Source of the DNA: Callorhinchus milii
Lineage: Eukaryota
NCBI RefSeq assembly: GCF_018977255.1
Contig: NW_024704742.1
Location: 137,394,001-137,458,000, forward strand
Length of the DNA stretch: 64,000 nt
Direction of reading: 5' to 3'
In this document: positions 5,513 to 49,251 of the stretch, one piece after another
Layout of the letters: the number at the start of each line of letters is the position of its first letter
How positions within the stretch are numbered: position 1 is the stretch's first letter
Notes under the pieces: model-generated
The model's database searches: none
What the model was told of the DNA's origin: nothing
What the model saw: the letters and a program-made list of their open reading frames with translations, nothing else
Made by a program: the position numbers and the translations under genes

Positions 5513-5720
5513 TCACAGCAGGTATCTACGTCTGGCGTCTTCGTCGCGGGTCAGGTCCACCACCTCGGGGGGCACGGTCCAGGGGGGCTGGGTGACGGCT
5601 GCCCACGAGTGTATCTGTTGCTGTGGGGGGGGCTGCTCCCTGGCGCTCAGACAGTACGGGTGGGAGGTAGCGTTCCAGGTGGAACAGGTCTGAATCACGC
5701 CGGGTCTGCTCTGTGGACGT
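5513..5720 (-). CDS. ARK2N: ARK2N last coding exon (exon 5)
   Basis: GVIQ...SWAAVT...PEVVDLTRDEDARRRYLL* matches the C18orf25 C-terminus EVVDLTLDEDSRRKYLL. Acceptor ttctgcag|A; TGA at 5515-5513. Confidence 0.95.
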
Positions 5721-6983: not shown

Positions 6984-7110
6984 CTGGGATCTTCCTGCAC
7001 TCCCACAATCTCGACCTCGCTGTCGCTGGAGGCGATCTGGATTTCCTCCTTCACTGGGACGGAGAAATCTGCAAAACCATCGCCAGCCATCAGGTCCTCG
7101 TCCAGCTGCC
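6984..7110 (-). CDS. ARK2N: ARK2N coding exon 4
   Basis: GQLDEDLMA...EEIQIASSDSEVEIVGVQE matches the C18orf25 acidic SIM segment. Acceptor ggctccag|GG; donor CCCAG|gtacaa; phase 1-2. Confidence 0.93.
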
Positions 7111-12005: not shown

Positions 12006-12325
12006 GGAGTCCTGTAGCTCAGTGGTTAGAGCACTCGCTTTGCAAGTGAGAGACCAAGTTCAATTCCAGGCAGGGCGAAACCTTGGGCAAGTTTCCTTAC
12101 TCCACACAGAGCCTAATAATAATCCCTCCAAAACTAAAAACAATAATTAAATTGGTCATTTTCAATCTACGACTGTTTGTGGGACATTGCTGTGCGCAAT
12201 TGGCTGCCGCGTTCGCCCACAAATATACAGTCAATTCACTTTACAGTGCGTTCTGTGAAGTGCTTTGGGACGTCCTTCCGACGTGAAAAGCGCTATATCA
12301 AATGCAAGGATTATTATTATTATTA
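12006..12325 (+). mobile_element. Full-length tRNA(Ala-like)-derived SINE, young short subfamily
   Basis: A box tagctcagtgg, TGC anticodon-like loop, B-box-like gttcaattcc, Deu-like core, L2-type tail, (tta)n. Confidence 0.92.
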
Positions 12326-13360
12326 CTCTATCACTACTCTATTGGTTTTGCATCTGTCTGAAATCTGCTTGCAGATTTACCCACCATCTCCTTCCCACTA
12401 TTTGGTGGTCTATAGTATACACCTAACAGAGTAACCGCTCTTTTTCAACTCCTTAATTCTAACCAAATAGATTCTGTTTTTGGACCCTCTAGAACATTGT
12501 CCCTTTCCAGGGACGTAACCGTGTCTTTAATCAATATTGCCGACCCCCCCACTCACTCCTTTTTTTTTCTTCCCCATCCCTCCTGAATACATTGTAGTCA
12601 GGAATATTCAGCTCCTATTCCTGCCCTTGTTTGAGCCAGGTCTCCGTTATTGCCACTACATCATAACCTGTGTGGCAACTTGAGCCGCAGATCACCAATC
12701 TTATTGCATTTAAGCACATTTCTTCCCCTTTCTTCTGGATGACTCCTTATTACATTGCTATTGGTCTCGCCCAGCCCTCTCCGTAACTTGTTTGTCCTCT
12801 CCAATGCTGCACCCTAATTCCCTTCCCTCTCAAAATTAGTTTAAACCTTTCCCCACAGCACTAGTTAACCTCCCTGTGAGGACATTGGTCCCAGCCCTAT
12901 TCAGGTGTAACCCATCCACCTTGTGCAGGTCCCACCTCACCCTGAACTGGTTCCAATTATCAAGGAACCTGAAGCCCTCCTTTCTGCACTATTTCTCCAG
13001 CCATGCATTCATGCTGTTTTGATACTCACTTGCACGAGGGAGTAATCCAGAGATCACCACCTTCGAGGTTATACTCGTTAGCTTTTTCCCTAGTTTCTGA
13101 TACTTTCCCTGAAGGATATCAGCCTTTTTTTTGCCTACGTCATGGATCTCAACATGGACCACGACTTCTGGATGTTCCTCTTCCCCCATGTTCTGCACCC
13201 GTTCGGTGGTTTTAAGGGAGAGCGCAGGGAGGTTGAGGTGTTTAGATCCGCAGGAGTGAAGGCATTGACGGGAGCCAAGGAGTACAGCTTCCGTCCTGTT
13301 CATATTCAGCTGCAGGAAGTTTACACTCATTCAAGCCCTGATGTCTGCCAGACAAGCTGA

Positions 13361-13682
13361 TAATAATAATAATAATCCTTGCATTTGATATAGCGCTTTT
13401 CACGTCGGGAGGACGTCCCAAAGCGCTTCACAGAACACACTGTAAAGTGAATTGACTGTATATCTGTGGGCGAACGCGGCAGCCAATTGCGCACAGCAAT
13501 GTCCCACAAACAGTCGTAGATTGAAAATGACCAATTTATTATTGTTTTTGGTTTTGGAGGGATTATTATTAGGCTCTGTGTGGAGTAAGGAAACTTGCCC
13601 AAGGTTTCGCCCTGTGCCTGGAATTTAACTCAGGTCTCTCACTTGCAAAGCGAGTGCTCTAACCACTGAGCTGCAGGACTCC
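13361..13682 (-). mobile_element. Full-length SINE, young short subfamily
   Basis: Nearly identical reverse complement of 12006-12325. Confidence 0.92.
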
Positions 13683-13813
13683 ACTAGATAGACCAGCGAC
13701 AGACCTGGAGTTGGTACTGGAGGAGGCAAAGTAAATTTGCATGTCATCCGCCGACATGTGGAAGTTTTTCCCCCATGTCGGCGGATGACATTGCCCAGAG
13801 GGAGCATATAGAT

Positions 13814-14123
13814 GGAGTCCTGTAGCTCAGTAGTTAGAGCACTCGCTTTGCAAGTGAGACACCTGGGTTCAATTCCAGGCAGGGCAAAACCTTGGGCAAG
13901 TTTCCTTACTCCACACGCCTATTAATAATCCCTCCAAAACAAAAATAAATTGGTCATTTTCAATCCACGACTGGGATTGTGGGACACTGCTGTGCGCAAT
14001 TGGCTATCGCGTTTCGCCCGCAGATATAACGTCAATTCACTTTCCAGCATATTCTGTGAAGCGTTTTGAGACGTCGAGAAGACGTAAAAAGCATTATATC
14101 AAATGCAAGGATTATTATTATTA
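13814..14123 (+). mobile_element. Full-length SINE, short subfamily
   Basis: Head, core and tail intact; flanked by TSD tatagatg. Confidence 0.92.
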
Positions 14124-14916
14124 TAGATGAGGAAAAGAAGAGGGCCAAGGATGGAGCCCTGGGGTACTCCGCATGTGACTGGGCGGGTTGGGAGGAGAAA
14201 TCATTTGCCGAGATGAAATGGAAGTGGTTGGTTAAGTAGGACTTGAACCATGCGAGTGTGGTCTCACTAAGGTGGCTGAAGGAGAGACAGTGGAGGAGGA
14301 TGGCAGAGAGATCCAGGACAAGGAGGCAGCGGGAACCCTAGTCACAAATAGACACTGTTTGTGACTTTGACAAGCGCTGTTTCTGGTGACCAGACTGCAG
14401 GGGCTCGCGTAGGGAGAGGTGTGACCGAAGTTAAGCTGCAATAATGCGTTCCAGGACTCAGTATAATACCATAATATGAGTATGAACCACAGACAATGTA
14501 ACAGCACAAGGTGAATGTGAGTGTGAGCCACAGTGTTACAGCACAATGCGAGTGTGAATCATCAACAACAACTTGGATTTATATAGCGCCCTCCACGCCG
14601 GACGGCGTCACAGACAATGTTACAATAACAGGATGCACACAAAGTCCTGTTAACCATGTTTCCTACAGCGCACTGACCAACAACTGAAACATGATCAGAA
14701 TTGTATTTCGAAGTACGTAATTGTATTCAGTACAAGTGTTTAACTGTATTTAGATGTCCAGAGGATCGGTGTAAGTGTGTGAGTGAGTGCCATCATTTTT
14801 ATCTCAGATACTCCGTGGCCATGTTTGATGCGACGGATGTGGGTAACAGGACTTTGTAGACACCCTGTACCTTTCCTAAAGATCACAATGTCTGAGACTC
14901 GAGCCGGCAGACTGAC

Positions 14917-15099
14917 CTTCGGGGGCACATTTCTCCACCACCAGACCTCGGTTCTGCACGGTGTTCACCGTGAACTCCTGATGCCCGTAGGAGAAGGCTT
15001 CCTGGACGCCAGCAGCTGCAAGAAGATTGTCCACATTCAGTACCTCGGGCTCCGAGTTAGTGTCAGATATATAATAGTGCGGAACCACTGGAGGCCCAT
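14917..15099 (-). CDS. ARK2N: ARK2N coding exon 3 (183 nt, phase 1-1)
   Basis: DGPPVVPHYYISDTNSEPEVLNVDNLLAAA matches C18orf25 DGPPVVAHYDMSDTNSDPEVVNVDNLLAAA. Acceptor tgttctcag|AT; donor GAAG|gtcagt. Confidence 0.93.
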
Positions 15100-15451
15100 C
15101 TGAGAACACAATGCAAAGGAGGCCGGTAAACACGTGCAACAGGGAGAGACAGACAGGGAGACAGAGAGAGGGAGCAGGCAACTACGATCAGCATCTCAAC
15201 AGTGCATTCACCCCTACACAGCTTCGTGACTGGCGTGGAGGGGGGTGATAGGTAGGTAAGGGTGGCTTTTCTTCACTCCTTGGCTGGCTGTAAAGCCCCA
15301 CAATATTCTGTAAAGTGCTTTGAGACTTCTCGATGACGTGATAAGGAGCTATATCAAATACAAGGATTATTATTATTATTACTTGGCTGGCTGTAATGTT
15401 CCACAATATTCTGTGAAGCGCTTTGAGATGCCTCAACAGTGTGATTAGGCC

Positions 15452-15975
15452 CTAGAACCAGAGGACACGGCCTTTGATTGAAGGGGGGGTTAAATTCTGA
15501 ACAAATCTGCGGAAACACTAATTCAGTGAGCGAGTAGTAGATGTGTGAAACAGGCTCCCTAGGGAGATGGTGGAAGCAGAAGGTGTTGATTCTTTCTAAA
15601 GCAAATTAGATAAGATTCCAGTTAGGAAATAATCTATTGAGATTTTTTGGGGCGTCAGCCGGGTATCTGACACACGTGGAAACCCATCACCGTGCTTAAG
15701 AGCATCCAAACCAAACTGAGAATTCCATGCATCCCACGTACACATGGAAATCCCAGAGAGAGATTGTTGGAATGGAATCTCTCTCCCCTGGGGGGACATT
15801 CCCTAGGAAGACGGTGAAAGCTGAAAGTGTTGATTCTTTCAAAAGCAAATTAGGATTCTTTTAGGAAATAATATCTGGGGATACAGTATATAGTCTGGGA
15901 CATGACTGCCAGGATAGTGGAAGGCGAACTGGGTGGACCTTTGTCCATCACCAGCAAATTCTTATGTTCTAATAT
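15452..15975 (+). mobile_element. CR1 3' fragment with internal duplication
   Basis: RTRGH-like start. The segment ccctagg...gttgattcttt..aaagcaaattag occurs twice (~15557 and ~15801). Confidence 0.7.
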
Positions 15976-17357
15976 CAAATGCAAGAATTATTATAAAATG
16001 GAGACTGGACAGAGCCCAGAATTTACACACGAAGAGGAAGACTACAGAATCATGAAGCCCAGTGCTCACCAAGTTTTGAAGTGAAAATAAGAGTTGTTTT
16101 TGGAAAGGGGAGGAGAGAAAGAGAGGGAAGGGGGAAATGTACATCAATTTCCAAGCCAGTTCACTCTCTAGGATTTTCTGAAAAGGCCCTGCAATAGGCC
16201 CTGAAATTCCACCCGGTCTCAGCCTGCGAGACCTGCGTCTACATAAAAATAAAGAAAACTGAGCAAAGATTGAAAAATGTAACCAATGAAAATTCTTCAA
16301 TCCAGTCCTTAATATGCAGCCGCTTCCTTAAAAAAAGTGGAAAAATTGCTTCAAGTCTAAAGGCTGGATTCAACAATAACAGATTACATTTTCACATCGG
16401 GAGGACGTCTCAAATCGCTGGACAGTCAAGGTTTTCGACCCAAGTTGGAGGCTGGGATTCAAGATTTTTCCACAAGTCTGCTCTATCTAACAGTGTCCCC
16501 GGCGGATTTCAGGCCTCAAAAGGGTTGGAGTCTATCAGTTCACAGTCCAGTGTGGGCAGTGCTGCATCGGGTTTTACAAATACTTCCTTCTGGACAAGTG
16601 GGCGGAGGGGAGAGAAGGGAGAACAGCGGCAACATAAAGGAAGGCAGGGTCTCGGATAAGATCTAGAACGTCCCTTCTGAGTGAGTTCAGTGAATCCCTC
16701 ATTCGCCTACAAATACAGTCACTATGCTTTACAGTAAATCCGTCAAGCGTTTTGAGATGATTCTAGGCCGTGATATGGCACCACATCACACATATTTCGC
16801 CCACAATTTTACAGTCTATTCTGTGAAGGGCTGTGAGTGGTCTCGTAGACGTGATAATGCGTTATATCAAATGCAAGGATTATATTATTACATCTTGAAC
16901 TTCAGTGAATGGGGAGAATATTCCCAAACTAGTCGCCCAACATCAAAACACACAACGCTATGCTATCAGAGCAAGAATAAACTCACTGTTTCCCTTCCAC
17001 CCACCATGAAGACACTGCTTGCTACAGCTCGCTCACTACAGGTTCCAATACAAACCTTAAAACGCACAACTTGCAATGATCTACCTCAGGCACTGGCCAA
17101 CATAAAGGTCTATCAAATGCAATCTTCTCTATCTATTCACAGATCATCCCAGGGTGAGAAGGTGGTCACTATCCCTCTTCCCGCTATTTCACAGTAAAGA
17201 GGTGCTCTCTCCTGGTGAATGTGCCCCTCCTCTCCCTCCCAAATTCATCTAAACCAGTAACATACTGATAAAGTGCTTTCTGGATGTTTCTCGCCCACAA
17301 ATACAGTCACTACACTTTACACTGAAGCCTGTCCAGCCCTCTGAGAGCTTTCTAGGA

Positions 17358-17495
17358 CACGAGGAGATGTTTGCAGGGCTATGGGGAGAGAGCGGGGGAA
17401 GGGGATTGATTTGGAAGCCCTTTTCAAAGAGCCGGCACAGACACGATCGACCGAATGGCCTCCTTCTGTGCTGTATAATTCTATGATTCTATGAC
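17358..17495 (+). mobile_element. CR1 3' end
   Basis: gagccggcacagacacga...ccgaatggcctccttctgtgctgtataattctatgattctatg. Confidence 0.85.
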
Positions 17496-18083
17496 ACAAT
17501 ACGGCACCATATCAGATGCAGAAGTTATTTATTTCAACTAATATTTGACAGTGGCAAAAACAATGGATGAGCGAGAATTCATAAGCGCTTTCACAAGCGA
17601 ATGTGGCAAATATTTAAAATAAAACCATAAAAAGGTGTGTGTTTTGTGGTGTGTGTGGGAAGGATTGAAGTGCAGGGGAGTGAGCCTAAGCAGATAGCTC
17701 CATCAGAAAGCCAACACAGAGATGATGGGCTGAATGGCCTTTTTCTGTTTTGTGACATTCTATGTTGTTAATCTGGCCAACAACAAACCAGATAAAATTA
17801 GTCATTCATTTCACAGCTGATTGTGGGGCATTGATGCGTGCAAATTGGCTGCCACGTTACCTCTACTACACACTTTCTCTGAGTTTCCCCTCAAGGGAAA
17901 GTTAATGCTGAGGAACTGATGATGATTTTCCTATTTAGCAACATAAAGAATCTCGAATCTCCGCAGCCAATATCTCCGTAAGACTGAACAAGCCACACAC
18001 ACCATAGGGTTATAAAAACCAAACATGGGGAATGATCTGAAATCCAATTCCAGCTCTGAATTTAGAGGAAAGCACCACATTGG

Positions 18084-18435
18084 GGAGTCCCGTGGTGTAG
18101 TGGTTAGTGCGTTTGCATCACAAGCGAGAGGACGGGTTTAATTCCTGGGTGGGGCGAAACCTTAGGCAAGTTTCCTTACTCCACACGCCTCTGTTTACCG
18201 AGCACCAGTAAGTAGGAACCAGGTTGTTAATCGATTGGCGGTCACTTTCCAGGGATAATAATCCCTCCACTCCCCCAAAAATGTGGTCACTCAAACCACA
18301 AGTGTTTATGGGACACTGTTGTGTGTAATTAGCTGCTGTGTTTCACCCACAAAATACAGTCGCTTCATTTTACAATACATAGCATGTGAAACGGCATGGT
18401 AAGGCACTATATCAAATGCAAAGACTATTATTATT
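18084..18435 (+). mobile_element. tRNA-derived SINE, long form
   Basis: Head, gcctctgtttacc..agtaagtaggaacc segment, Deu-like core and tail. Confidence 0.88.
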
Positions 18436-20147
18436 TTGACTGTCAAAGATCCTAACCTTGAGATGAGAATTTAAACCAAGGTCACACCTGTGCCTGTTCA
18501 GGTGGACGTTAAAAGATCCCATGACGCTATTGGAAAATGAGAAGGGAGTTTTTCCTGTGTCCTGGCCAATTATCCTCCAGATAAATTGGGTATTCACTTC
18601 CTAGGTTGTTTGTGGGAAGTTGCCGAGAACGAACTGGCTGCCAATAAAACAATCACTCCACTCGCCAGCAATCACCTTCGCTTTGGAGGTGTTCTGAAGG
18701 TTAAGGGAATATAAAATGACAGGATAATCACAAGAGGCTTAAGGTGTGAAGAAAGGTTTCTGCACGGAGGGGAGTTAGGAACTGACACCGTGTTTCAAGG
18801 ATAAAACCACACACGGTGACCTGAGGCAAGGTCTCCACAAGGGGTCGGCACTGGGCAGATTTTCCTCGTCAACTTCACAGAGCAAAAGAAAAGGCATTCA
18901 ACTGTGTGTTACGTCAGCACTTCCCACAGCGTCTCAGTCGCCACATGTACCCGCTCCAGTTTACTGCTCATCACCTGCTCCACCATCAGAGATCAAGCTT
19001 TCAGCCACTATCAGCCATTCATCCAGTCCTCCTTTGCTGACTTCACGACAGCCCCCGCAGCAAACAATTCCCATCTACCTTCACCTGCGACGTCAGTCAC
19101 TTCTATATTCCTTCCACTTCAACAATAACAACAAATACCATTTATCTAGCGCCTTTCACGTTGGGAGGACGACTCGCTTAGTGCCCTTTGCCACCTGCTT
19201 TGTCAGGTTCTCTTACGTGGGCCAGCGCTGTATAAAACACACAGTTCCTGTTTGCCCAACACAGACACAAGTCAATCAACTGACAGCACAGCAAACAGCC
19301 AATAACGTGAAACTTTTATGGCAAATCCGACTGTAGAAACCTTGTGTGCGGAAAGGATTGTGGTGAGAGACAAAGAGGAGAAAAAAATGGTGTCAAAATA
19401 GTTTGTCGATTATCCCTGCGAAAAATAACTATTTTCGACTGGAAATGGCACTTTGCCCGAACACCACCCACTCCCCCTCCCCACGATCGAATGGTTTCTC
19501 TGTCAATTTGCTTGCCATCTTTTTGTAAAAAGGACCGAGATTTTGACTCCAGCCTAGTAGTAGAAGGGCTTCGAAAGCCAACACACTCATTGGTCTTTAA
19601 CTGACAAAGCAACGTGAAGTGTATTCTCTCTGCAGCCTGATTAAACGTTTCCCAACCTTGGAGAGGTGACAGCCATCATCGCTCTCAAACGCCCGGATGG
19701 GGAAATTTTCTTGAAGTTTCGTGGTGTGAGAGAGGAAGCAAAGAGGACAGGTGTTCAGTCCTAATCCAGGCATTCAAGGTCCCGACTGCCTGCTCAGGTG
19801 AATGTTAAAGATCCTGTGACACCACTGGAAAAAAGGGAGTTTCGCTCTCTCTCTCTCTCTCTCTCTCCCCGGGGTCCTGGCTCTGACAACCCCCCAGGTA
19901 AAATTCATCACTCACTTCATGGCTGTTTGTGGGACATTTATTGTAAAGTCCTTTTAAGTGCTTTGAGATGTCTCAGCAACGAGATAAAGCATTGTGTCAA
20001 ATGCAAAGGATTATTAGTAAGCAGTTTCCAGGGTATAAAGCGGTCCTTAATTATCCTGAGATTTAGCCACACCACAATTTTGACCTCTGTAGCAGAACAG
20101 ATCTGTTACAGCTTCACAAATTGAGATCTCAACACTCAAAATTCAAT

Positions 20148-20489
20148 GATAATAATAATCTGTGCATTGGATGTAGCACCCTATCAAGTCACTGAGACAT
20201 CTCAAAGCGTTTCACAGAATATACTGTAAAGTGAATTGACTGTGTATTTTGTGGGCAAAACCCGGCAGCCAATTGCACACAAACAGTCCTGGTTTGAGTG
20301 GCCAAATTTATCTATTACCCTCAGAAAGCGATCTGCCAATCGATTAACCACCGGGTTCCCACCTACTGGTAGATAAACAGATGCGTGTGGAGTATGGAAA
20401 TTTGCTTAAGGTTTCATCCCAACCAGGAATCAAACAAGGGTCCTCTCGTTTACAAGGTGAGTGCGCTAACCACTACTCTACACGACTTC
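20148..20489 (-). mobile_element. tRNA-derived SINE, long form
   Basis: Reverse complement of the family pattern. Confidence 0.86.
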
Positions 20490-20898
20490 ACCATATACAC
20501 AATCTTTCAATACACGTTGTTACTGCCCACAAGTGTGAAGACTCTGCAGATCTGTGCTTTGTGGATTTAAGCACCGTTACTAACACCAGTTTGAATGAAA
20601 TAAAATGATGAAATTATTTTAACATGTTCCTGGAGCTTTATATGGACATCTGCCTACACATCCTTTATCTAATCACTTTTGAGACATTTATTTCAGGGGG
20701 TATTTGACTGTACTCTAGCTGAGAAGATCGATGGGTGACCTGACAGAAGTCTCAGAGGTGTTACAGGGTAAACAGTAATAGATTCCTGAGGAATTCAAAA
20801 ATGAATCAAAGGGGAGGGTAAAGAAAATATCTTTACAGAATGAGTTGGAATATGGAATTTCAAAGTGACTTGAGGCAGACTGAATTAGATAGAAGCTT

Positions 20899-21305
20899 GG
20901 AGAGTCCCATAATTTAGAGGTTAGAGCACCCGTCTCGCAAGCGAGAGGACCCGGGTTCGATTCCTGGACAGGCCAAAACCTTAAACAAGTTTTCTTACTC
21001 CACATGCCTCTGTTTACCTAGCAGTAAGTAGTAAGCTGGTTATTTGTCAATTGGCGGATCGCTTTCTGGGGGTAATAATCCCTTCCCCAAAAAATATGGT
21101 TTCACTCAATCCATGACTGTTTTGTGGGACACAGCTGTGCGCAATTGGCTGCTGTGTTTCGCCCACAAAACACACAATTTACTATATATTCTTTACGATA
21201 TATTCTGTGATACGATCAATCCACTTTTACAATATAAACTGTGAAGTGCTTTGAGACGTCTTAACGATGTGATAAATTGCCAAATTAAATGCAAAGATTA
21301 TTATT
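20899..21305 (+). mobile_element. tRNA-derived SINE, long form
   Basis: B box ggttcgattcc, core, and tail with a short internal duplication. Confidence 0.88.
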
Positions 21306-22538
21306 ATACAAGGAGGAACATTGAAGGATCTTGAAGGGGGGGAAGTTGCTTAGGAAGAGTGTGGGTGGGGCGGGGGTGAGGGGGGGGTTAAGGCTGCTTT
21401 AAGAGAAAACCAGCAGTGCAGACTTGCTAGTTAACATTATAGCATTCTGTACTCTAATCTTCCTCACCTGTGCACAAGATGTGGGTCAGAAGAGACTTCA
21501 GAGTGGGTGAATATAGGAATAAGGTGGGTTTAGAGACAGTGAGATCGGGGAGGATTAGCAGAACACAAGTTAATTCAACCAACGATACAAAAAAAGGCCT
21601 GAAACGTACCTAGCTGTTAGTGTTAACAGGGCAACAATCTGGATTTACTACACAGAGCCAGCCCTCTCTTATCTAGATAAAGCATGCATCATCATTCAGA
21701 TACAGAGGAAGACAAGACATGATCAGAAGGAGGTGGGTTTATTGGGGAGAGGGAGTGTTAACAAAAGAGGGCAAGGATTTCAGAACATTACATGGTGACT
21801 GCGTGATTAAAATGGATTCTTCCTGCCTCGTTACAACCTAAAAACAAAGGTGGTAGAGGGGAGAGGGAGATTAGAGGAAATCTTATATCACGGTATAGTT
21901 TTAAACCAACATTTGCAGTCACTTAATACCTCGTCCAAACACCACTCTGCGTGGGTGAGCCTAGACTGCAAACATTTCTGTAGAAAACGTCAACCAATTC
22001 TGCGTAACCATAACTTAAGTCCAGGGGGGATTTCTGGTTCTGTCACTGCGGTTGAGTCTAGAAATCGAGAGCTCGACTCCCTCTACAACACAACTCCCTG
22101 GTCCCTGCGCTGAAATTTATCGAGACTGAACTTATACGATTAATATTTTAATCACCAGTTTCTCATTCATGTCAATTTTGTGTTTTAAAAATATAACGGC
22201 TGTTCTATAAGGGCCCAAAACAACAACAAAAAAAAGTCAAATAAAGGAACTTCATTGAATGTCATTACATTTCGCCCACAAAATATACAGTTAATTCACT
22301 TTACAGTATATTCTGCGAAGTGCTTTGAGACTTATCAACAACACGATCAGGCGCTATATCAAATGCAAGGATTACTTCTAATGTTATTACAAAAAAGCTG
22401 TGAGTAAATTGGCTGGCTGTATTGTCACGGTTATACTATACACATACGGTCAGGGTCACTGGAAACACAAACACTTAGTGACATGCAACATACAGCAGAC
22501 ACGTCTGATCATGCAAATATACATACTTCAGCACCTAC

Positions 22539-22640
22539 CCTTTATAATACGCTTTGCCAAATAATCCCAGTCTTCAGTCAGACAGTATAGGCACATCGGG
22601 GTATTTCTGCTGCTGTGGGGGTCCGGAATCCTCCGCGATA
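22539..22640 (-). CDS. ARK2N: Candidate extra ARK2N exon (102-nt in-frame cassette, or alternative first exon using ATG at 22596)
   Basis: Donor AAGG|gtaggt is phase 1. Acceptor cttgctctgctcag|TA is phase 1. Encodes VSRRIPDPHSSRNTPMCLYCLTEDWDYLAKRIIK with no stop. Confidence 0.45.
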
Positions 22641-25440
22641 CTGAGCAGAGCAAGCCGGCGAGATTAAAGAGCTGTGTTTGGTCCAAATCGCCACCAAGGA
22701 TTGTTTTTGGTGGTGGGTGGGGGGTGGGAGTAAGTGGAAAGCAGGGGGAGTAAGGAAAAGAGAAGAGGGGAGATCGACGGGGTTTTGAGATAGCATACAA
22801 GATAAAAGGAGACTCTTGTCCAGGGGCTGGGGGGAGAGAGAGTGAGGAGGGAGGGGAGGGGTGGAGTAGGAAGAGAGAAAGGTAGAGCACCCAAAAGGGC
22901 TTGTGATGTGACTTGAGGCCAGATAAATTGCTGATAAAAATCAATGTGAACCACATGATTGGTTTCTTTTCAATAAAAGTTTATCACCCAAAAATACCAC
23001 AGAGAGATGTTAAGATTTGTACACACACGCACGCACACACACACACACACCCGCGCGCCTGAAACACCCAACCCTCAAAACAGTGGATAAAGCAGAATCC
23101 ATCAATGGCTTTCAAAAGAGAATTGGACAACAATTTCAAAAGGAAAAACAATTAAGAGGAGATTGGTGGGAAAGGGCAGGGGAGTGGAGCTAAAACCGAG
23201 AGCTTGTTTCAACGATGTGATAGGGCTCTGTATCAAATGCAATGATTATTATTATTATTGTTATTGATCAGAGAGCCAGCCCTCTGTGCTGTACCTTCTA
23301 CAAAGCGATAACGCGCTCAGCAATCAATTTGAGATTTCCAGCTCAATGAAATCACAAATCCAAACTGGAAACATGAGCTACCTCCAGTCACTGGGCAACT
23401 GCAAAATAGCCAGAAGCTGACGAGTTGATGTTTCACACAGGTCACGGAAGGGTTGAAACATGACGTGTGGACACACTGGCGAACACTATGCACGTTTAGA
23501 CCAGGAAAGGGAATGGAAAAAGAGAAGCCAGAGCTCCCTTTTCTGATCTCAGGCCAAAGGATGACCTCTGCTGGAAAGCATTCACAAACTGACAGGGGAT
23601 AGGAGGGATTCAGGTTGGTCTGCGATGCGGAACTCCCCCAATAAGGTCTCATTCACTCCCACTCCTCACTCCCTACATCTCTCAGCTTCGATTACCTTGG
23701 GCATCTTGGATGGCCAACAATGCACCTGAAAGACTGTGGTCCTGATATATAAACTCAGTCATGTAATGGGAAGGTTTAGGTGGATATTGTAGGAGGATGA
23801 GATCAAAGGGGCTTCATCCAAACCCCTCTTGTGATGGAATTTTCTGAGGATTCTCACAGACGGGGCTGGCACACTGACAGTGGAGCCATAGCCCCAGCAC
23901 ATGCCAATGCCTTCAGGATGTGATGGAGGAGAGAATGTGGCAAAGCCACACACTTGGATTCTGGGTCTCTGTCTCTCAGCTGCGATGTCAAAGATACACT
24001 CACACAAGTGAACAAATAAAAACATATCAAATAAGCAATGTACAGATTGGATTAATTCAACACAGTGTCACTACATTGAGATCTTTTTGCCTTGTGAAAG
24101 CATGGAAAAGGCCAATCAGCCCATCAAGTCAGTTCTGCCTTTTATTAGTTTATTTGATCAGCGCAAATCTACTTCTTCATATGCCTTAACATCTTTACTT
24201 CCCAAGGATCTCTCTTCCTTTTAAACACACCAATTGTTTCTGCCTCTATGGAATGGAGAAGTGTGTCACAACCACAGTCCATTTGCCTTGTTCCCTTCCT
24301 TGCTTCTTTCAAAGCCTGTCTCAAGACCCTACTCTTCGACTGCGCCGTCGGTCACCCTCCTTGATCCTACCCTCCCTGCCCTCCACCCTTTCTGATCCCA
24401 ACCTTGTGCTTAGGTCCAAATTCCCTGACTGTCCAGTGCCTTGGAACATCCCCCCGACATGAAAGGTGCTATGTAAGTGTAATTGGCACAGCCTCTTCCA
24501 CACTGTTGTTGGATCCCTAGCTGGGTTGCTGAGACAACCCTATGTAAATGCACAGGTCACAGCTTTGATGTCAGCTTCACAAGCTGCTTGCTCAGATATG
24601 TAGCCTTGGAAATGAAAAAGCTCCAAAGGAACCAAGCAATGACAATAAATCAGCTTTGGCCCATCTGATCTTATCCTTCCAGAATTTCCATGACATTATC
24701 CCACTAGTCTCTACCACCCTTACCTTTGGCGCCACTAATTGCCCTCAGTGTTACATAACACAAACACCTAGTATTTTTTCTGAAATAGCCTTTCACAATT
24801 CTCGAGCTGTGCTCTGGAGTACGAGTATTGTACTGGGTTTACTTTCTCTATCTCATGCACCGGACTCGGGTGCAAACGCAAATGCAATTAAATGCATATG
24901 CATTAGAATTTGTGTTTAAATGTGTTCTGAGACACAAGCTATTATGACTTGCATTTTTCTCAAGCGCTCTGGGATGCTACCCGGCCTGTGCAAGGGGCTC
25001 TCTATAAATTCATGTTGTTGTTGTTATCTAAATGTCTGGGTGACACATCTGAAGTTGACCAAATACATTTGTAATATTTTCAAATGCTTAAAGGAATACT
25101 CAATGAATCTGATGCTGTAGAGTTTTCAGTATTGCAGCGACGATATTTTGTCCAGAAAGAGCCCGCATTAGAAAGAGCCCACACGAGAATCTCTATGTGC
25201 AACTTTTTATTAAATGCACTGAGCTTTGTGTTTGAACTTGATAATTTTGACATGTTATGACTCGAGTATTGCCTTTAGACGTATAGATGTAGTTTGTAAT
25301 GTTTAATAGGAAGCTCTTTTGAGTAAATGCTCTGAAGTGTTGCATTTATTTCTGCCCGAAAAGAAAATCCACATTGGCATCCAGTACATTTTTTAAAAAT
25401 ATATTTGCATTTAGAACCAACACATTTGAATCTGCCTTTA

Positions 25441-25770
25441 ACAATAATAACAAATTACATTTGTCGGGAGGACGTTTCAAGCTGCTAGACAGTCGGGGAT
25501 TTGGACCTGAGCAGGGGGTTGGAATCAGGAGGGGTAGAGGGAAGGGTGTGTAAGGGTAGGAGGGTGACTGGAGGTACATTCGAAGAGGAGGTTCTTGAGG
25601 CAAGGGAGTGGTTGAGGTAAAAGGACTGTGGGATGGAGTTCCAAAGGGTGGGGGCAGTGAGGCTGAAAGCCCGACCACTGATGATGGGGTGTGCCGGGCG
25701 GGGTGTGGAGCAGGCTGGAATCCGCTGAGCGGACAGGTGTAAAAGGCGCTATACAAATGTAATTTGTTGT
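25441..25770 (-). mobile_element. L2 3' fragment with tail sequence at both ends
   Basis: L2 3' UTR/tail motifs; see findings. Confidence 0.75.
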
Positions 25771-26581
25771 TCTTGAAGTTGTTAAATGCAAATTCAAATG
25801 TGTTGGTTCTAAATGCAAAATCCTTTAAATGCACTAATTTGGTTTTGCATTTGTGCAATCACAACACTTTAATTTGCATTCAAATATGTGTGTCCACATT
25901 GATCCCAAATGTGCAGCTTCAAGAGATTTCCACTGAGATGTTTCAGTGCTGAAGAACTCTTGCTTAATATCGAATTGTTCCTCACAGCTCATCCCTCTAA
26001 CACTGGAGAACATCTCTCCTCTACGCTCTCTAGGTCCTTTGCAGGCCCTCCATACCATGACGACCAGCACTACCCATGTCAGTTGCCCAAATTTATCCAT
26101 TTTGGGGAGTCAATTGGCTGAAAATGCAAGGATCAGAGTCTCCTATTCAGCAAGTGGAGTCGGTATTAAGAGGCAAGCACACATCCAAAATACCCAGGCA
26201 GAGGCATGGCAGCTTTCCATCAACAACTGATGGATTTCTCTGGAAATATCCACAAACAGCAACTCCAGGGATATTGAAAGGCATCAGGTTTGTCCAAATA
26301 CAAGTTACAACATCTCAATAGGCAGGAAGGTATCACTTTTAAGATATATTTACAGCAGGTACAGACACATGGAGAGGAAAGAAGCCCAATGCCTCAAGAA
26401 TTCCTTCAGCTTTTGGGGTCCGAAGAAGGAAAAACACTTTGGGTCCAGAGCTGAAAAGTGCCCCCGCTCCCCGCATCTTAAACCCCAGCTTTAGTTCCTT
26501 GTTGGCGTTATAACAAAGCATCAGAAATTCCAGAACAAGCAGAACTCAAAAGAATGCAAACCAGGGCTACACTTTGAACAA

Positions 26582-26587
26582 TTTATT
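26582..26587 (-). terminator. Candidate poly(A) signal for the alternative last exon
   Basis: AATAAA on the minus strand with upstream TGTA motifs and a downstream U-rich tract (tttgcattcttttgagttctgcttgtt). Confidence 0.45.
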
Positions 26588-29500
26588 CGCGTTGATGTTG
26601 CAATTATTTTGACATTTCTGAATTGTACACGGTTTTGTTTTTTGGCAATACAGTACTTGGCAACCAATCCTGGAACACAACAAAGGCGAGCGAGGCGCTG
26701 CGAGGGTAATGATGGACACAAGGAACAGACCTACATGCTGGCGATCGGGAGACATGGCATTCCAACTGGATTGGTGGGATCTGAGAACCCAGGATTCGAG
26801 ATCACAGGAGCCTCAGGTTAAGATGAAGAATTCGAGGTTTGAAATTCCTCACAGTTTCAGGTGCGAGGTTGTAGTCTTAAAGGAAACTTAAGATCAAGTG
26901 GGATTCTTGAATTCAAATTCAGTCCGAATTTGGAAGCAGTTTCTCTACAGCTCTTCCAAAAAAATATTGGCTTCCAATTTAAAACAGAATTTATGAATTT
27001 CCTAAAAATTCTGCACAATCTTAACTTTTAGTAAGACAATTTCAGGCTGGCTCAGTGACTGCTCCCCACTCCCTCGGAGACAGAGTTTCTCTTAAAATCA
27101 GTATCATATTTGCTAACGCTGGTGACGGGGAGGGTCCGGGCGAGGGGTAAAACCACGACGGTTCGATAAAACACTGATTCTGTTTTGATCAAAGTCAATT
27201 GAATATTAAAACATTATAAAAACCGACCCTCCGGTCAGTATCTTGTCCCATTCTTTACGTTTGCAGTTTGAGTCAGTATGGCCGTTAGTCAGACTTAGAA
27301 TCATTGCACTGCCAAGGAGACACTGCACCTAAATGTACCCTGTCCCCCAGCTGAAACCAGCTAACTGCCCAGAGCAGGAAAGGAAATCAAAGCTGTCTGT
27401 TTGGCTTTAGCTAAGTGCTGGTTGAACTCAGTGAGACATCAGGGACCTTGAAGTGGGGGAGGCAGGGGTGGGGGGGAATGTGGTCGCGGAGAAGAGAGAT
27501 TGTAAACAAATTTGCAAATAAGATCACCTATCGGGAAGTGCTGAGATATTGATCCACTCAATCATTTAACAATGTGCAAGGTCAGTTTGAGCCATCGCCA
27601 CGCCAATTCAACAAGATGCCTCTAAGCAGATAGTCGTGTCGCCCAGTTTGCTGTTGGGGTGGGGACTAGAACGAAGAGAAGGGTGTTAAGGCTCTGCAGG
27701 ATCCCACCCACTGCCTTCAGTTCTCAAGGGTTCCTCTCTCTCCTCCCTCTCCTCCCCCTCTCCTCTGCTGCAGCCCCCAAGATAACCTCAGAAAGGCACA
27801 CTCAGCCTTGAGCAGTTTAAAAATAGTGCTGCGAATAGTGAGCAGTCAGCCAAACAACTACACAGGCTACAGTCAATACTACACTGATCAGTCACCACCT
27901 CTATGAGAATATAAAGTTAACCACATGGGAGGTGGACAGAGGTTAACCAATTTCCTCCTCTCAACTTGTATCTAAAGCGACTCTCTCTCTCTCTCTCTAC
28001 TGTGGATTAAATGCCCGGAAAGCCTGGCTGATTTGTTTTAAACCCGACCCCAAGCCAGAGACCCTATGTAACCCTGGCTGAGATCGGCTCCTAATGCATA
28101 GATAGAGACCTGGGATCTGCTCCTCACCTGTCATGCAAACTGAGCCAGCCAGGACTGGGAAAACCAGGCATTTCAGAAAGGTTAGCCTAACTGGAATATA
28201 ACCACACCATCCAACATTAAAAAAAATCAATTGGCAAAAACAGAGTCGTAGGTGCTGGTTCTCGTGTCCACCTCAATAAAAAATCAAGTTAGTTCCTTTC
28301 CTTTTTAAAAAAAACAAGTTCCATCATAAATACTGGGTTTATAGTGTTTGTGCAAATGCTCCCTCACTGTTCAGTGCTACCAGCAGTTTCAGTAATGGTT
28401 TAATGCCACATATTCCTCTCCCCATTCTACTTGGACTGTTATTTGTTTACGGTTTGTTCAAGAGTCTCGCTCCCCACCCACCCACCCACCCACCCAGAGT
28501 ACACAGTTGTGACTGTCCACCTGCGATAGCATTGCGTCAAATTCCAAAATCATTCACAACAGGTTGTTTGTGTTCTCAGTATATGCAACACACAATTTGC
28601 CCAGAAAAGCTGGAGATCGCTTGACATTGGGACCCTCTATTTCACAAAGAGTCGAAGCGATTTCCATCCCTGGCCCAGACTATTGATAGTTTGGCCACTT
28701 TCTGTTTTTTTTAATGGTGTGTGTGGTGGTGGAGGGGGTGGTATGTGATAATTATCATACTGTATATTTTGTTTCACCCACAAAGTATACAGTCAATTCA
28801 CTTTACGGTATAGTCTGTGAAGCGCTTTGAGATGTCTTGAAGACACGATAAGGCGCTATATCAAATGCAAGCATATTATCATTGACAATAATACCATATT
28901 GCACTTTAAGAGGCCAACTAGTCATATTGGCATTGTGGTGTGAGGAAATGACATAAGCCCCCTCTCCCCTCCCATACGTGGTCACATTGCTGGGCGGGGA
29001 AAGTATTTTAACTGTGTAGAAAGCTTGTGATTCTATAGAAATGACCAGAATAGTGTTGGGTGAGAAATAGGGTGGGGCGCGGAGGGGGAAGAGAAAGTGA
29101 GATTAAACGCAGTCGAGGGTCAGAACACCAACTGAAATATTACATCTAACTTTAACTGAAGGCAGGAGCTTGGAAGAGTCAGTGCAGGAATTGCACTCCT
29201 GAATTTCAGTCACACCAAGGCCAAACACAAAGCTGAGTTAACACAGAGGGTTTGATGCAGTGAATTACAACAGTTTCTAGAACATATCATGCCCCCAAAA
29301 AGTACAACCAACCGACCAGAGGCGGCGTCCCCCAGATACCATGTGAATTTTGCTTTTTCTTTTAAAAAATACAAGCAGCCACTTGACTGACCACAACCTG
29401 GGCGGTGGATTCCCTCCTTACACTCCTAAAGTTGCACTGCTGCCTGTGCACGGTACTTTATAAGTCGTTGAAACAATCCTTCAAATCCCCACCCACCCCA

Positions 29501-29645
29501 CTCCCCCACACTGCAATCACCCCCTCAAACCTACCCCCCACCCCACACACGCACACACACACAAAACCCTTGCCCCACCCCATCCTCCCTCGACCACACT
29601 AGTCAGTCCAGGTACAAGAATCCACTGATGGGCCGGGCCGATGGT

Positions 29646-30091
29646 TTAAAGATTGGAGCGATTTAGGTCATGATCAGAGGCATTCCCGTTGTCCTGAAAA
29701 CCAGCCGGTGGATTATTGTTGTTGAAAGGCGTCTGGAAAGCTTGCGTACTGTCAGCGTTTGGGTGGTTGTTGCCGTAAGGGGAGTGTGGCTGCTGGGGGC
29801 TGGCTGGTAACAGGCTTCCTGGTTGGGTGGGTGGGGGAGGAACCCTGGCTGGCCCTTTGGCCTCCTGCCCCTCCAGTGGCTGTTTGGCATCCTCGTCCGT
29901 GTCCATGCGGGTCAGCTTTTCCATCCACATGCGGAAACGCTCCTCCGTCTGCCGCTGCATCTCGGCAAAACAGTTCATAGCTTCCTCCAGCACATTGCCA
30001 ATACAGTTCCGCTCCCAGGAGATCCCGGTGTCCGGCAGGCCGGCCATTTGGGCGGTGTTGCCAGTCCCCTCGGCACGGTTGTTGGCGGCAG
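29646..30091 (-). CDS. ARK2N: Candidate alternative last coding exon of ARK2N
   Basis: Acceptor gtctttcaag|CT is in phase 1, matching the exon 2 donor. It opens 148 codons (AAANNRAEG...WERNCIGNVLEEAMNCFAEMQRQTEERFRMWMEKL...RSNL*). Non-repetitive, with coding-like composition. Confidence 0.7.
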
Positions 30092-30434
30092 CTTGAAAGA
30101 CATTGAGGCCATTTGATGAGAGCGATTACAACACACATCCCCCCAAAATAGACAGGAACTCTTTCGCTCCACATTACAAAAATTTCTCTTAAAAAAAAAA
30201 TCCCGGTAGAAAAAACATGGCGGACATGAATGTGGTATTCCTAAACTTATTCTGCTCCTTGTTTAAGACAGTTCATTGAAATGGGTTGTGAAATATCCCT
30301 CCCCGATTTCTGTTGTGCCTGAGGACATCAACCAGGCTCCTGTTGCTGCTGGAGGGCTTACTCACAGCGTAAGTTAGGCCCTGAGTAAGGTCGGAAAGGG
30401 TGCTTTCGGCACTTGCTAATCGGGAATCGAAAAT

Positions 30435-30830
30435 CAACAACAACTACAATAACAACTTGCATTTATATAGCACCCTTCAAGCGGGGCAGTGTCTCGGAAG
30501 ACTTGAAGTGGCGGAGCCTGACCCTGTGCTGGGGGGGAAGGGAGGAGGTGACTAAGCACGATCGAAGAAGAAGGTCTTCAGTCGTGATCTAAAAGCAGGT
30601 CAGAGGGATAAGGTGGTGCCAGGGAGTGAAGTGATTTGCAGATGAGTAATAGGATGCCTAATATCGTTCCGTTCTGTGATAGGGAGAAAGTGGAGCCTGG
30701 CAAGGACTGGTGTGATGAGGTACAAAGTTTAGTGTAGATGAGAATATGGGCGGCGGAGTTCTGAATCAGTTGTAGTTTGTGGGTAGTGAGCAGGGGAGAC
30801 CGGGCAAGGAGGTAACGAAGGCAGGGACGA
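30435..30830 (-). mobile_element. L2 LINE fragment
   Basis: HKLQLIQNSAAHIL remnant and an (aac)n/ttgcatttatatagc tail. Confidence 0.8.
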
Positions 30831-31558
30831 GGTTTCAGCTGGTAAAGGGATAAAAGTAACGTCTGGATGTTGTGTCCGCACATAAAGTCAGGGGGAAGAG
30901 AGAAAGCAAGTAAGATAAAATATTGTTTCCTAATCCTTAAATAACTGACATAATGAGTTTCGGAACACTGCAATTTTGACCTCCCCACATAAACTTTCTT
31001 TCAATAAAATTAACTTTCAGTTGAAAAACATTGCGGTGATAAGTCCCGAGCTGTCCTCACAATCCAAACAGTCAGATTAGAATTATCCACTTTCCTGGAG
31101 CGCAGTCTGTATCAATGTACAGTTTGTATCTTGAAGAATTAGCACTTGTGGTGAACTGAACTCAGACGTGGAAAGCCATATCAACTAAAGAACGTTAAAA
31201 CACCACCTCCGTGCCAGCTTTCTGAGATATTGAATTAACTGAGATCAGTGAAGAAACAGCAATAGAAACAGAATGTCACAGCACAGAAACAGTCAGCTCA
31301 GTTCATCCACTCGGTGCTGCTGTTTTTCTCCACATGAAACACCTAAATCTAATCCTTGCTTCCCCATAACATGTAATATTACTCCTCTTCAAGCATCTAA
31401 TTCCTTTTGGAAACAACTTACCAACTCTGCTTCAACAGATTTTTTTCTAACCTAATTCTTTCTGTGATTATCTTAAATTTGTGCCTCTTTTGGCTCACTG
31501 GTTGAATATTGCAAATTAATCTATTGCTATTTACCCTGTCCAGACTCTTCATAATTTG

Positions 31559-34974: not shown

Positions 34975-35343
34975 GGAGTCTTGTAGCAGAGTGGGTAGGG
35001 CACTCGTCTCACAAGCGAGAGGATCCGGGTTCGATTCCCGGGCGGTGCGAAACCTTAGGCAAGTTTCCTTACTCCACACGTGTCTGTTTACCTAGCAGTA
35101 AGTAGGAACCCGATTGTTAGTCGATTGGTGAATCACTTTCTGGGGGTAACAACACTTTAAAAGTAAATAAATGCTTTGGTTACTCAATCACGACTGTTTG
35201 TGAGACACTGCTGCGCACAATTGGCTGCCGCGTTTCCCCCGCAAAATATAGTTGATTAATAATAATCCTTGCATTCACTTTAGAAAATATTCTGTGAAAT
35301 ACTTTGAGACATCTCAACAACGTGATAAGGTGCTATATCAAAT
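34975..35343 (+). mobile_element. tRNA-derived SINE, long form
   Basis: Head with B box ggttcgattcc, core and tail. Confidence 0.88.
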
Positions 35344-39559: not shown

Positions 39560-41421
39560 CGATCCCCCATCTCCGCCGCTAGATGCCACTAAACACAACC
39601 CTAAAATCCTTTTTTCCCCACCACCCACTACCTCCTCCGTGCTCCCCTCAGGCCTCTTCAATCTTCATATAAAACGCCAAGTGCGAGGAGGTCATGGACT
39701 TCTTTTCATCTAAAATTCACAACATCCGCCAGGCAGCCTCATCCACCTGCCTCTTATCACCCACCACCACACCCTCTCTGTCCCTCTCATCCTCCCCATC
39801 ATCTGCTCCTACCACCACCCCCATCCTACACTCCTTCCTCCACATCTCTCCCTCCTCCCTCTCACCCACCATCACCTCCATGAAACCCACCACCTGCTGC
39901 CTCGACCCCCTCCCCACCAATTTGCTGGTCACCCAGCTCCCCCTCCTCTGCCCACTACTGACTGATGTCATCAACCAATCCCTCTCCTCCGGATTAGTCC
40001 CTGCTCCCTTCAAAACGGCTGTCATCACCCCCCTCCTCAAGAAACCTTCCCCAGATCACTCAAACCCCAGCCATTACCACCCCATTTCTAACCTGCCCTT
40101 CCTCTCAAAAGTCCTAGAACGCATTGTTGCCAATCAACTTCGCGCAAACCTCTCCTCCCACTCCCTCGTCGAACCCCTCCAGTCCGGTTTCCGCCCTGTC
40201 CGCAGTACAGAGACTGCGCTTGTGAAAGTCACGAACGACATCCTCTCTATCTGTGACCAGGGCTCCCTCTGCCTCCTTGTCCTCTCCGCGGTGTTCGACA
40301 GTCGATCACGCCGTCTTCCTTCACTGACTTTTCTCCGTCATCCACCTCAGTGGGATTGCACTCGCCTGGTTCAAGTCTACCCTCACAAACCTCCAGCAGT
40401 ACATCTGCACAAACGGCTTCTCCTGCCGCTCTCACCCGGTTACCTGCGGGGTATCCCAAGGATCCATCCTTGGCCCCCGCTTCTCATCTGCAGACACGGA
40501 GTACATTGGATGTGGACGACACTCAACTCTATTTTTCCACCTCTCTTTACGACCCCCAGTCCCCTGATGTTCTGCCTGTCAGATCTCAGGGGCTGGATGA
40601 GCACAAATTTCCTTCAGCTGAACGTTGACAAGACAGAAGCCATACTCTTTGGCTCTCGTCAACGTCTAAAATCTCCACCTACCCGATCTCCCCCTAAAAC
40701 TCTCTGAACCCGTACGCAACCGAGGCGTCAGGTTCGACCCCCAATTATCCTTCCTCCCCCACACCCGGTCCCTCACCAGCACTGCCTTCTTCCACCTCCG
40801 ACATATCGCCCGTCTCCACCAATACCTCTCTCCGAAAGCCGCTGAAGCCCTGGTCCATGCCTTTGTCACCTCTCGGCTGAACTATTCTAACACCCTCCTC
40901 GCCGGCCTCCCCTCCACTACCATCCATAAAATCCAGATCATGCAAAACTCTGCCGCCCGCATTCTCACCCGCACCAAACTCCGCTCCCCAATCACCCCAG
41001 TCCTGGCCAGACTGCACTGGCTGCCTGTCCCAGAGAGGATCGACTTCAAGATCCTCACACTTATATTCAAATCCCTCCACTCCTCTGCACCCCCCGACCT
41101 CTTCTCTCCTCAAAACAGTACCCGTTGCCTTCGTTCCTCCGGATCTGGCCTCCTCCTCGTCCCTCGAGTCCTCCGCTCCACCCTTGGCAGCCGTGCCTTC
41201 AGCCACTATGCCTCGAGGCTCTGGAACTCCCTTCCTCACTCCCTTTCGCCTCGCTCCCTCTCTGCCTATTTTCAGGTCTCTGCTGAAGACCTTTCTTTTT
41301 GACCGTGCCTTTGGTCATCTTCCCCCCCTCTCCCCCTGGCTCGGCCCTGGGATCCGTTACTGTAAAGCGCTCTGAGACGTCGTCCGGCGTGGAGGGCGCT
41401 ATATAAATCCAAGTTGTTGTT
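39560..41421 (+). mobile_element. L2 LINE, 5'-truncated, decayed RT
   Basis: ORF 39694-40707 FFSSKIHNIR..LDPLPT..FKTAVITPLLKK..PISNLPFLSKVLER..QSGFRP..STETALVKVTND and 40940 QNSAARILT..LHWLPV. Frameshifted; (ttg)n tail. Confidence 0.93.
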
Positions 41422-47883: not shown

Positions 47884-48637
47884 CTGGGATCTCTGTGCTA
47901 ATGGTCCGCTTGCTGTTTCCGGAGCCCTCATCCTCGGAGGAGCTGGTGCTGGAGTCGCAGGTCAGGTCACTGTCGCTGGTGCTGCTGTCCTGCAGTAATG
48001 TGTACTTCTTGCGTGCGGCTGCCTCCCGCTTCTGCCTGAGCAGCCGCATGCGCTCCTTCTGCTTCTGCGTGCGGGCCTTGGACACCCGGCCATTTGGTTT
48101 GTCCCCGGGGCACGAGCGGTTCTTCTTGGGAGCCATGGCCGAAGTCTCGCTCTCGGACCTTGACCGCCGAGACTTCTTGCCGGCAGGCGGCGGTCCCCCA
48201 CCTCCTCCGCTCCCAGCAATCCCTATGGTGTCCTCAGGCGGTGCAGTGCCGGCCGTCTCGCTCTCCTCCACAGACGAGAGGGTGTCGGAGTCCGCGAGGT
48301 GGCCGCTGGAGGAGGGGGACACCATACACTGATTGGAAGAGTCACTATCATATGTACGACCGTGCTGCTGCTTTTCACTGTCGGCGGATGGTGGCTGGGA
48401 CTCCGAGTCCTGCCCGAGCTCCATCAACAGGCACGGCTCCCCCGACTGCCCGCTTGGCTTCAGCGGCAGCTCGGGCTCCTCCTGCTTAGCTGGGACAGTC
48501 TCTTTCTGGACAGTCACCACATTGTCCTTGTCGGCACAGTCTGCCTTGGTGTCCTCAATACCCTTGGCCGGAACCTCAGCCTCTCCCAGGCCATCCTGGG
48601 AGGAGAAGTCGGTCTTCTCCGCTCCTTCCATCTTCAT
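47884..48637 (-). CDS. ARK2N: ARK2N (C18orf25/ARKL1) first coding exon (exon 2; exon begins at 48735)
   Basis: Translation MKMEG...PCLLMEL...[16 protein letters not shown]...[12 protein letters not shown]...[36 protein letters not shown]...EIP matches recalled vertebrate C18orf25. Acceptor ttctgttctcttcag| at 48736; donor CCAG|gtattt at 47883; phase 1. Confidence 0.96.
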
Positions 48638-49251
48638 GTCACTGAGTCCTGCGTCGCTCCCTCTGAAAGGTCATAGAGCACGCAGGCGGGAGGTTGGGCA
48701 CGGCGCTCAATTAGATCTGGTGATAGTAGGGGCACCTGAAGAGAACAGAAGTGTTGGTTACAGTCAGCTCAGCAAATCTGACACAAGTAGAGCATCTGTT
48801 CCCTTTTACCAGAGCCCATTAAACTCATCTGACGTCACGATTACCCACAGCACATTTCTCCATTGCTGCTAGAACATGGAAATGTTTGGCTCATACATAG
48901 CAAGTCACCTCATTTAACATGTTGCCTACTCAGCACCAGGAAATCATCATGCGGGGGGTAGGGCAGGGTCTACAATTCTATCTAGGTGTTTCTAGACAGA
49001 CTGCACATTCCTTCTTTCAGTGAGCCGGGAGGTGATCTGGTACACTTCAAAAGTAGAAGAAAGTACACTTCAGTGCTAGATCAGTTCAATGTAGTACTGA
49101 ATAAGCTATAAGTGACATAAGGTACTGTGTGCGCTAATTCAGATGAATGTTAAAGACCCTGTATCACTATACAAAAGAACAGAAAAGAATATTTCTCTTA
49201 GTGTACTGACCAACAATACTTCACATAGGTCAGTCATTCTCATGGCTGTTT

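Follow-up and report, generated by a model that had tools for sequence, protein, structure and literature searches.

A conserved alternative last exon in intron 2 of elephant shark ARK2N encodes a tail with a predicted helix

We analysed a stretch of 64,000 nucleotides (nt) from the elephant shark, Callorhinchus milii (assembly GCF_018977255.1, contig NW_024704742.1, positions 137,394,001 to 137,458,000), referred to here as the window, the minus strand of which carries the gene ARK2N (C18orf25, ARKL1). Coordinates are counted from the first letter of the window. Intron 2 of the gene contains a real terminal exon at 30091–29646, and the evidence supports two mutually exclusive endings of one transcription unit, an alternative last exon rather than a split gene. 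The canonical ending supplies two SUMO-interacting motifs (SIM1 and SIM2). In the alternative ending these are replaced by a predicted helix, and the conserved exon probably gives rise to a SUMO-independent CK2 adaptor, which would likely have a different docking partner.

The alternative last exon and its predicted helix

The full-length ARK2N computed from exons 2 (coding part 48637–47884), 3, 4 and 5 has 423 amino acids. Exon 2 scored 76.1 bits against the Pfam family PF15303 (RNF111_N, cut-off 27), which places it within that family. The motifs EVEIV and VVDLT (SIM1 and SIM2), encoded by exons 4 and 5, are present in the 423-residue form. Both are missing from the product of the terminal exon, which is entered through a phase-1 acceptor (TTTCAAG, directly ahead of 30091) and stays open up to a TAA at 29648–29646. 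Exon 2 joined to this exon encodes 399 amino acids, identical letter for letter to RefSeq XP_007907111.1 (P0001, "C18orf25 homolog isoform X3" of C. milii), and the Ser/acidic tract and basic region are kept.

Alternative last exons with intronic polyadenylation have an acceptor, a stop, a 3′ untranslated region (UTR) and a poly(A) signal of their own, and swap the C-terminus of the protein. The corresponding elements were found here within the intron: the in-phase acceptor, the exon's own stop and a downstream poly(A) signal, the first AATAAA after the TAA lying 3059 nt away with two ATTAAA ahead of it. The 3′ UTR is poor in repeats, with 3.9% self-matching sequence compared with 20–58% in five intron segments and 16% after the canonical stop. 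An earlier note on this DNA had listed the terminal exon, a repeat-poor stretch of about 3 kb ending in AATAAA, a cluster of transcription factor motifs and an ATG-containing segment with a phase-1 donor, and all of these are present in intron 2 (Table 1). The N-half protein that it proposed, with basic and Ser/acidic regions and no SIMs, corresponds to an isoform that RefSeq predicts and that is conserved in jawed vertebrates. The note undersold this form: with its highly conserved helix, the new exon does more than truncate the protein.

Table 1. Coordinates of ARK2N exons, motifs and candidate elements in the window
Feature	Coordinates	Strand	Details
ARK2N exon 2	47884..48735	-	ATG 48637; phase-1 donor CAG/GTATTT at 47884; RNF111_N region; common to all isoforms
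Ser/acidic tract, about residues 216–237	47927..47992	-	corresponds to the stretch removed in the human CK2-beta-binding mutant (PMC10542384 supplement primers)
Conserved intron end, modest pyrimidine tract (12/20) at acceptor	30092..30121	-	28/30 bases as in L001
Alternative last exon, coding part	29646..30091	-	148 new residues and stop; C-terminus of XP_007907111.1; 78 clusters
Conserved core, residues 25–65 of exon	29895..30017	-	predicted single amphipathic helix 29–65; conservation 0.92 (n=60), pLDDT, hydrophobic moment
Repeat-poor 3′ UTR of alternative last exon (3′ end approximate)	26560..29645	-	3.9% repeat; long contigs in 4/4 runs
AATAAA, likely poly(A) signal	26582..26587	-	TGTA upstream, U/GU-rich stretch downstream; contigs of X5, X8 and X2 stop nearby
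ATTAAA, possible second poly(A) signal	25868..25873	-	X1 contig extends to 25879; a repeat about 100 nt further could explain the stop
Three WGATAR sites, CCAAT, E-box (proposed promoter)	22926..22986	.	not above chance
ATG and phase-1 donor AGG/GTAGGT	22539..22596	-	weak context CCCCGATGT; unsupported as first exon; no homolog
Exon 3, 183 nt, phase 1 to 1	14917..15099	-	possible inner acceptor at 15015
Exon 4	6984..7110	-	CK2 site (SSDSE) and SIM1 (EVEIV, 7018–7004); SIM1/S328 primers in PMC10542384 supplement
Exon 5, coding part	5513..5720	-	SIM2 (VVDLT, 5563–5549) and canonical stop

Fourteen sequencing runs contain the stretch, none of them recorded as RNA; four of the 14 were aligned, as assembled contigs, on 14800–31000. 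In each of the four, long contigs span a large part of the 3′ UTR, and those of runs X5, X8 and X2 (from two studies) end at 26589, 26587 and 26552, within 37 nt of one another and at the AATAAA. The contigs of X1 and X2 over the exon match the genome as far as 30093 and then carry 24 further letters, as would be expected of a splice to an exon outside the aligned region. The number fits a splice to exon 2, because a branch in an assembly from 31-letter words, which we take to have been the word length used, leaves 30 shared letters. Without the first four (CTGC, common with the inner exon 3 acceptor at 15015, which an X5 contig appears to use), 26 would come from exon 2, and two of these (AG) also match the genome, so that 24 are left unmatched. 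Within the 3′ UTR, all four runs differ from the window at 27587 and 27702 (an 8-base insertion and a substitution), either by polymorphism or by a difference in assembly.

The conservation of the exon was assessed by column over 60 selected sequences. Within the exon the score was 0.92 for residues 25–65, 0.73 for the 24 residues before them and 0.56 for those after; for comparison, the best 20-residue blocks of exon 2 scored 0.97. Between the shark and a bird-type metagenome contig (L001), the 41 core codons comprise 23 without any difference, 13 with a silent one and five that change the residue, and comparison at this level indicates that the coding part of the terminal exon is under purifying selection. 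Likewise, 28 of the last 30 intron bases ahead of the acceptor are identical between shark and L001, compared with 13/30 and 14/30 at control acceptors (exons 4 and 5 against contig L002).

The structure of the new tail was predicted with AlphaFold2 from the 60-sequence alignment. A single helix was obtained at residues 29–65, with a predicted local distance difference test score (pLDDT) of 91–98 over residues 31–60, while the rest of the chain was of low confidence (mean pLDDT 59.6) and the distal 80 residues are predicted to be disordered. The hydrophobic moment of the core helix has its maximum at 100 degrees. Isolated within a disordered tail, amphipathic and nearly invariant, the helix most likely serves for docking on a partner or for oligomerisation. 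A homodimer prediction of the core (residues 15–72, two copies, run without controls) scored 0.01 against a mark of 0.32. Searches of the tail against Pfam, PDB sequences, Foldseek and the ESM Atlas returned nothing usable. A possible likeness of the helix to those of Mad1 SID and ETO NHR2 was set aside, as it had no Pfam or PDB match. A separate likeness to the N-terminal part of P0199, a protein we take to be transposon-like, was rejected, as 530 of 971 scored shuffles did equally well or better.

Distribution of the exon and the placental mammals

When proteins of 259–2000 amino acids were searched with only the exon as query, 214 candidates were returned, from which 78 clusters were obtained. 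By a hand tally these comprise cartilaginous fish (10), ray-finned fish (10), the coelacanth (1), amphibians (25), squamates (19), turtles (2), birds (7), a monotreme (1), marsupials (2) and one cluster without an organism name. Exhaustive comparison with 1.84 billion representatives found 18 matches and added records from the carp family and bass. Every match is of ARK2N type, and hence no donor gene or transposon outside ARK2N was found among these representatives as a source of the exon. A metagenome scan yielded two loci out of 71 pattern matches, neither of which spans the region preceding exon 3.

Several records depart from the simple two-ending arrangement. In the annotated models of four frog species (P0046, P0051, P0057 and P0073) the helix exon continues into exons 3–5, giving a protein with helix and SIMs together, and a catfish model (P0165) likewise joins it to exons 3–5. 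The junctions of the frog models coincide near the exon's end; the corresponding site in the window has no GT. These frog models suggest that the helix forms a separate module. In the models of chicken (P0023) and gecko (P0031), exon 2 is followed by small, unrelated in-frame inserts ahead of the helix exon, which suggests that intron 2 often gives rise to minor lineage-specific exons. A UniRef record of C. milii itself (P0002) joins an unrelated N-terminal part, absent from the window, to the middle of the helix. It is probably a chimeric model with the neighbouring gene, which we take to be HAUS1; similar fusions or labels occur in P0242, P0257 and P0262.

Placental mammals do not appear among the named records of this series. 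None of the 77 named representatives among the 78 clusters is placental, and no placental record occurs in the fully listed marsupial (3/3 and 8/8 members) and monotreme (2/2) clusters, while another search of the same collection did return named placental ARK2N records. Three records (P0204, P0211 and P0212) hold decayed copies of the exon with some changes in common. P0211 and P0212 have the intron end attached and align with the intact exon in two frames, so that they resemble decayed genomic exons rather than retrocopies; all three are candidate remnants from a lineage that lost the isoform. Given the absence of named placental matches and the three decayed copies, loss of the exon in placental mammals is, in our judgement from these records, likely.

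The case for loss is weakened at several points. The largest cluster, of birds and turtles (representative P0013), has 196 members, of which 181 lie outside the listing, and placental-type exon 2 is identical to that of its representative at 170 of 179 positions (∼95%), compared with 172 of 179 for marsupials, so that placental members may be hidden there. Furthermore, P0204, P0211 and P0212 carry no species assignment, and birds too have damaged extra copies (P0208). Placental mammals might therefore have retained the isoform, concealed by clustering or by absent annotation, the searches having covered protein records. We nevertheless regard retention as rather unlikely, since marsupials and monotremes form clusters of their own without placentals, the 15 members listed for the large cluster are without exception birds or turtles, and the decayed copies include two with a frame change and the intron end.

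The segment at 22.5 to 23 kb and other features of the window

The earlier note had further suggested that the locus may consist of two transcription units, the second starting inside intron 2 from a promoter near 22.9 kb and producing a SIM-carrying C-half protein. This protein computes as 191 amino acids (19 new codons plus exons 3–5). The ATG, its in-frame phase-1 donor and the three GATA sites do lie just past the poly(A) signal, and PMC3627648 gives a precedent in the Ark2N/Ark2C locus itself, where tandem promoters are parted by poly(A) sites. Neither element stands out from its surroundings, however. Scored with a rough donor matrix, 28 sites in intron 2 equal or exceed the donor at 22539; nine of these 28 have an in-frame phase-1 ATG, and four reach ten or more codons, the candidate being included in both counts. 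A GATA triplet within 70 nt arose in 89 of 200 first-order simulated introns and occurs twice in intron 2, the second time within the 3′ UTR at 28757–28689. The CpG observed/expected ratio is 0.17–0.64 at the candidate region against 0.78–1.09 at the main promoter, and the ATG at 22596 has two further ATGs upstream in addition to its weak context.

Searches for a homolog of the 19-residue start were likewise negative. It is absent from 120 short C-half matches, whose starts are intron read-through or unrelated, and from all 323 fetched proteins. A direct, word-based search with the segment gave no candidate among proteins of 82–263 amino acids, and L001 has no match in the 5.4 kb past its stop, a contig that ends before exon 3. 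Conservation of both new exons, which the note had put forward as a check, is seen for the terminal exon (78 clusters) and was not found in these searches for the second element. The transcript contigs carry no weight either way: the joint 22539–15099 is not among 15 displayed of 914 in a table swamped by repeats, and no long contig piece is listed over 22540–22980, where depth is unusable because the bin borders a high-copy repeat. In the absence of a homolog, with signals at chance level and with in-frame acceptors upstream (22826 and 22640), the second unit and its SIM-only protein find no support, and we consider the internal promoter very unlikely. The motif cluster and the ATG segment exist as sequence; the segment is most likely no promoter, though it may hold a tissue-restricted, lineage-specific start.

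A cassette exon, or no function at all, agrees with the observations equally well. As a cassette, the same segment would be a minor exon, specific to this lineage, inserted ahead of exon 3. Either acceptor keeps the reading frame and leads to no stop, giving exons of 102 nt (22640–22539) or 288 nt (22826–22539) and proteins of 457 or 519 amino acids. The acceptor at 22826 has 19 pyrimidines in 20, compared with 12–15 in 20 at the established acceptors of the gene. Moreover, the 399-residue model is numbered X3 here and X2 in other sharks, which hints at one extra long model, and the chicken and gecko inserts fall at this same junction. Against this, the 14 AG sites upstream of the donor include four that are in frame without a stop, about the chance level for a pyrimidine-rich stretch, and we hold a cassette exon to be improbable, although less so than the promoter.

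Some observations concern other parts of the window. The inner acceptor of exon 3 (15015) would remove 28 residues in frame, giving 395 amino acids with both SIMs in place; the X5 contig aligns only from 15018 and is preceded by 19 unmatched letters. In exon 2, around 48430–48400, this species and another shark have LGQD(C)S where tetrapod records have LRRDSS. The basic residues preceding the reported AMPK site, which corresponds to human S67, therefore appear to be absent from both. The only Rfam matches in the window are eight tRNA-like ones (12008–13887, 34984–35041, 49491–49553 and 61403–63141), likely the heads of short repeats, and none of them lies within the region of the finding. Long open frames at 8656–9246 and 39673–41299 look to us like reverse-transcriptase fragments of long interspersed nuclear elements.

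Proposed function and relation to known systems

Work in human cells has assigned functions to the parts concerned here. According to PMC10542384, both SIMs are required for localisation to PML bodies and for binding SUMOylated RNF111, the serine-rich region is required for binding CK2-beta, and CK2 phosphorylates S328 next to SIM1. The primers in its supplement map SIM1 and S328 to exon 4, SIM2 to exon 5 and the serine tract to exon 2, the deletion primers fusing the codons of ...KYNLL to DDDEEVS. Because of this placement, the alternative ending retains the CK2 arm but not the SUMO arm, and the 399-residue isoform is expected from its sequence to retain CK2-beta binding. In PMC11181095, an RNF111-N part without SIMs gave partial rescue in a repair assay.

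We propose that the exon 2 donor would select either the acceptor at 30091 or that of exon 3. Use of the former, with cleavage near 26560, would end the transcript ahead of exons 3–5. The conserved intron end suggests that acceptor choice is regulated, and might bind the factors that set it. The 399-residue product would then bind CK2-beta without being concentrated in PML bodies, its helix serving as a docking surface for a different partner.

Another explanation is that the terminal exon mainly lowers ARK2N output, producing a SIM-less truncation that titrates CK2 and has a tail without a binding role. The disordered and less conserved distal 80 residues would fit this, as would the strong conservation of the acceptor element at the RNA level. 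It does not account for a 41-residue core that is almost invariant as protein while synonymous change is free, and the four frog species annotated with helix and SIMs together are unexplained by mere truncation. We therefore think truncation unlikely to be the main function.

Several points nonetheless weigh against a functional second ending. The four aligned runs are only guessed to be RNA, with no DNA control, and the 24 loose letters at 30093 are known by number and not by sequence. The X1 contig runs past the AATAAA to 25879, beside the ATTAAA at 25873. Protein records carrying the exon are mostly pipeline predictions; the docking role of the helix is argued from conservation and shape, no related family having been found; and, in PMC11789047, the repair role of ARK2N is disputed.

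With the alternative last exon as the preferred reading, a wider scenario is conceivable, although we would place it slightly short of probable. Since the split of sharks and bony fish there would have been a second ARK2N, in which an invariant docking helix takes the place of the SUMO-binding tail and directs CK2 to another complex, and placental mammals alone would have lost its exon. The functional work on ARK2N that we found concerns the SIM-bearing form in human and mouse cells. If the scenario is true, studies in human and mouse have covered only half of the ancestral gene function, and in most other jawed vertebrates splicing selects either a SUMO-guided CK2 adaptor or a SUMO-independent one. 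The helix of about 40 residues, of an unnamed family and similar in conservation to the best parts of exon 2, would then offer a defined bait for partners in chicken, frog and zebrafish, and would call for caution in the design of knock-outs in these three animals. It would also be a candidate example of a conserved domain that disappeared at the root of the placental mammals.

The isoform is predicted in databases and apparently undescribed in the literature. No paper title or abstract start describing it was found, although subscription papers may mention it, and the word "isoform" is absent from the main texts of PMC3627648, PMC10542384 and PMC11181095. The RefSeq/Ensembl models of "ARK2N isoform X2/X3" (for example XP_007907111.1, XP_015132907.1 and XP_005305464.1) are identical or orthologous to the N-half protein; they are automatic models and bear no domain name.

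Canonical SIM-bearing ARK2N (human; PMC10542384, PMC11181095) is the same gene and has the RNF111_N region of exon 2, the basic patches and the serine tract in common with the isoform, but it carries SIM1, SIM2 and the CK2 site by SIM1 and lacks the 148-residue helix tail. The tandem Ark2N/Ark2C (RNF165) locus, the split counterpart of Arkadia/RNF111, likewise has a poly(A) site between modules; in PMC3627648 it has two documented promoters, whereas ARK2N here has one supported promoter and two last exons to choose from. The gene architecture itself is not of a new kind. Compared with alternative last exons in general, the ARK2N tail is unusually old and invariant in sequence, is internal in some frogs and is apparently missing in placental mammals.

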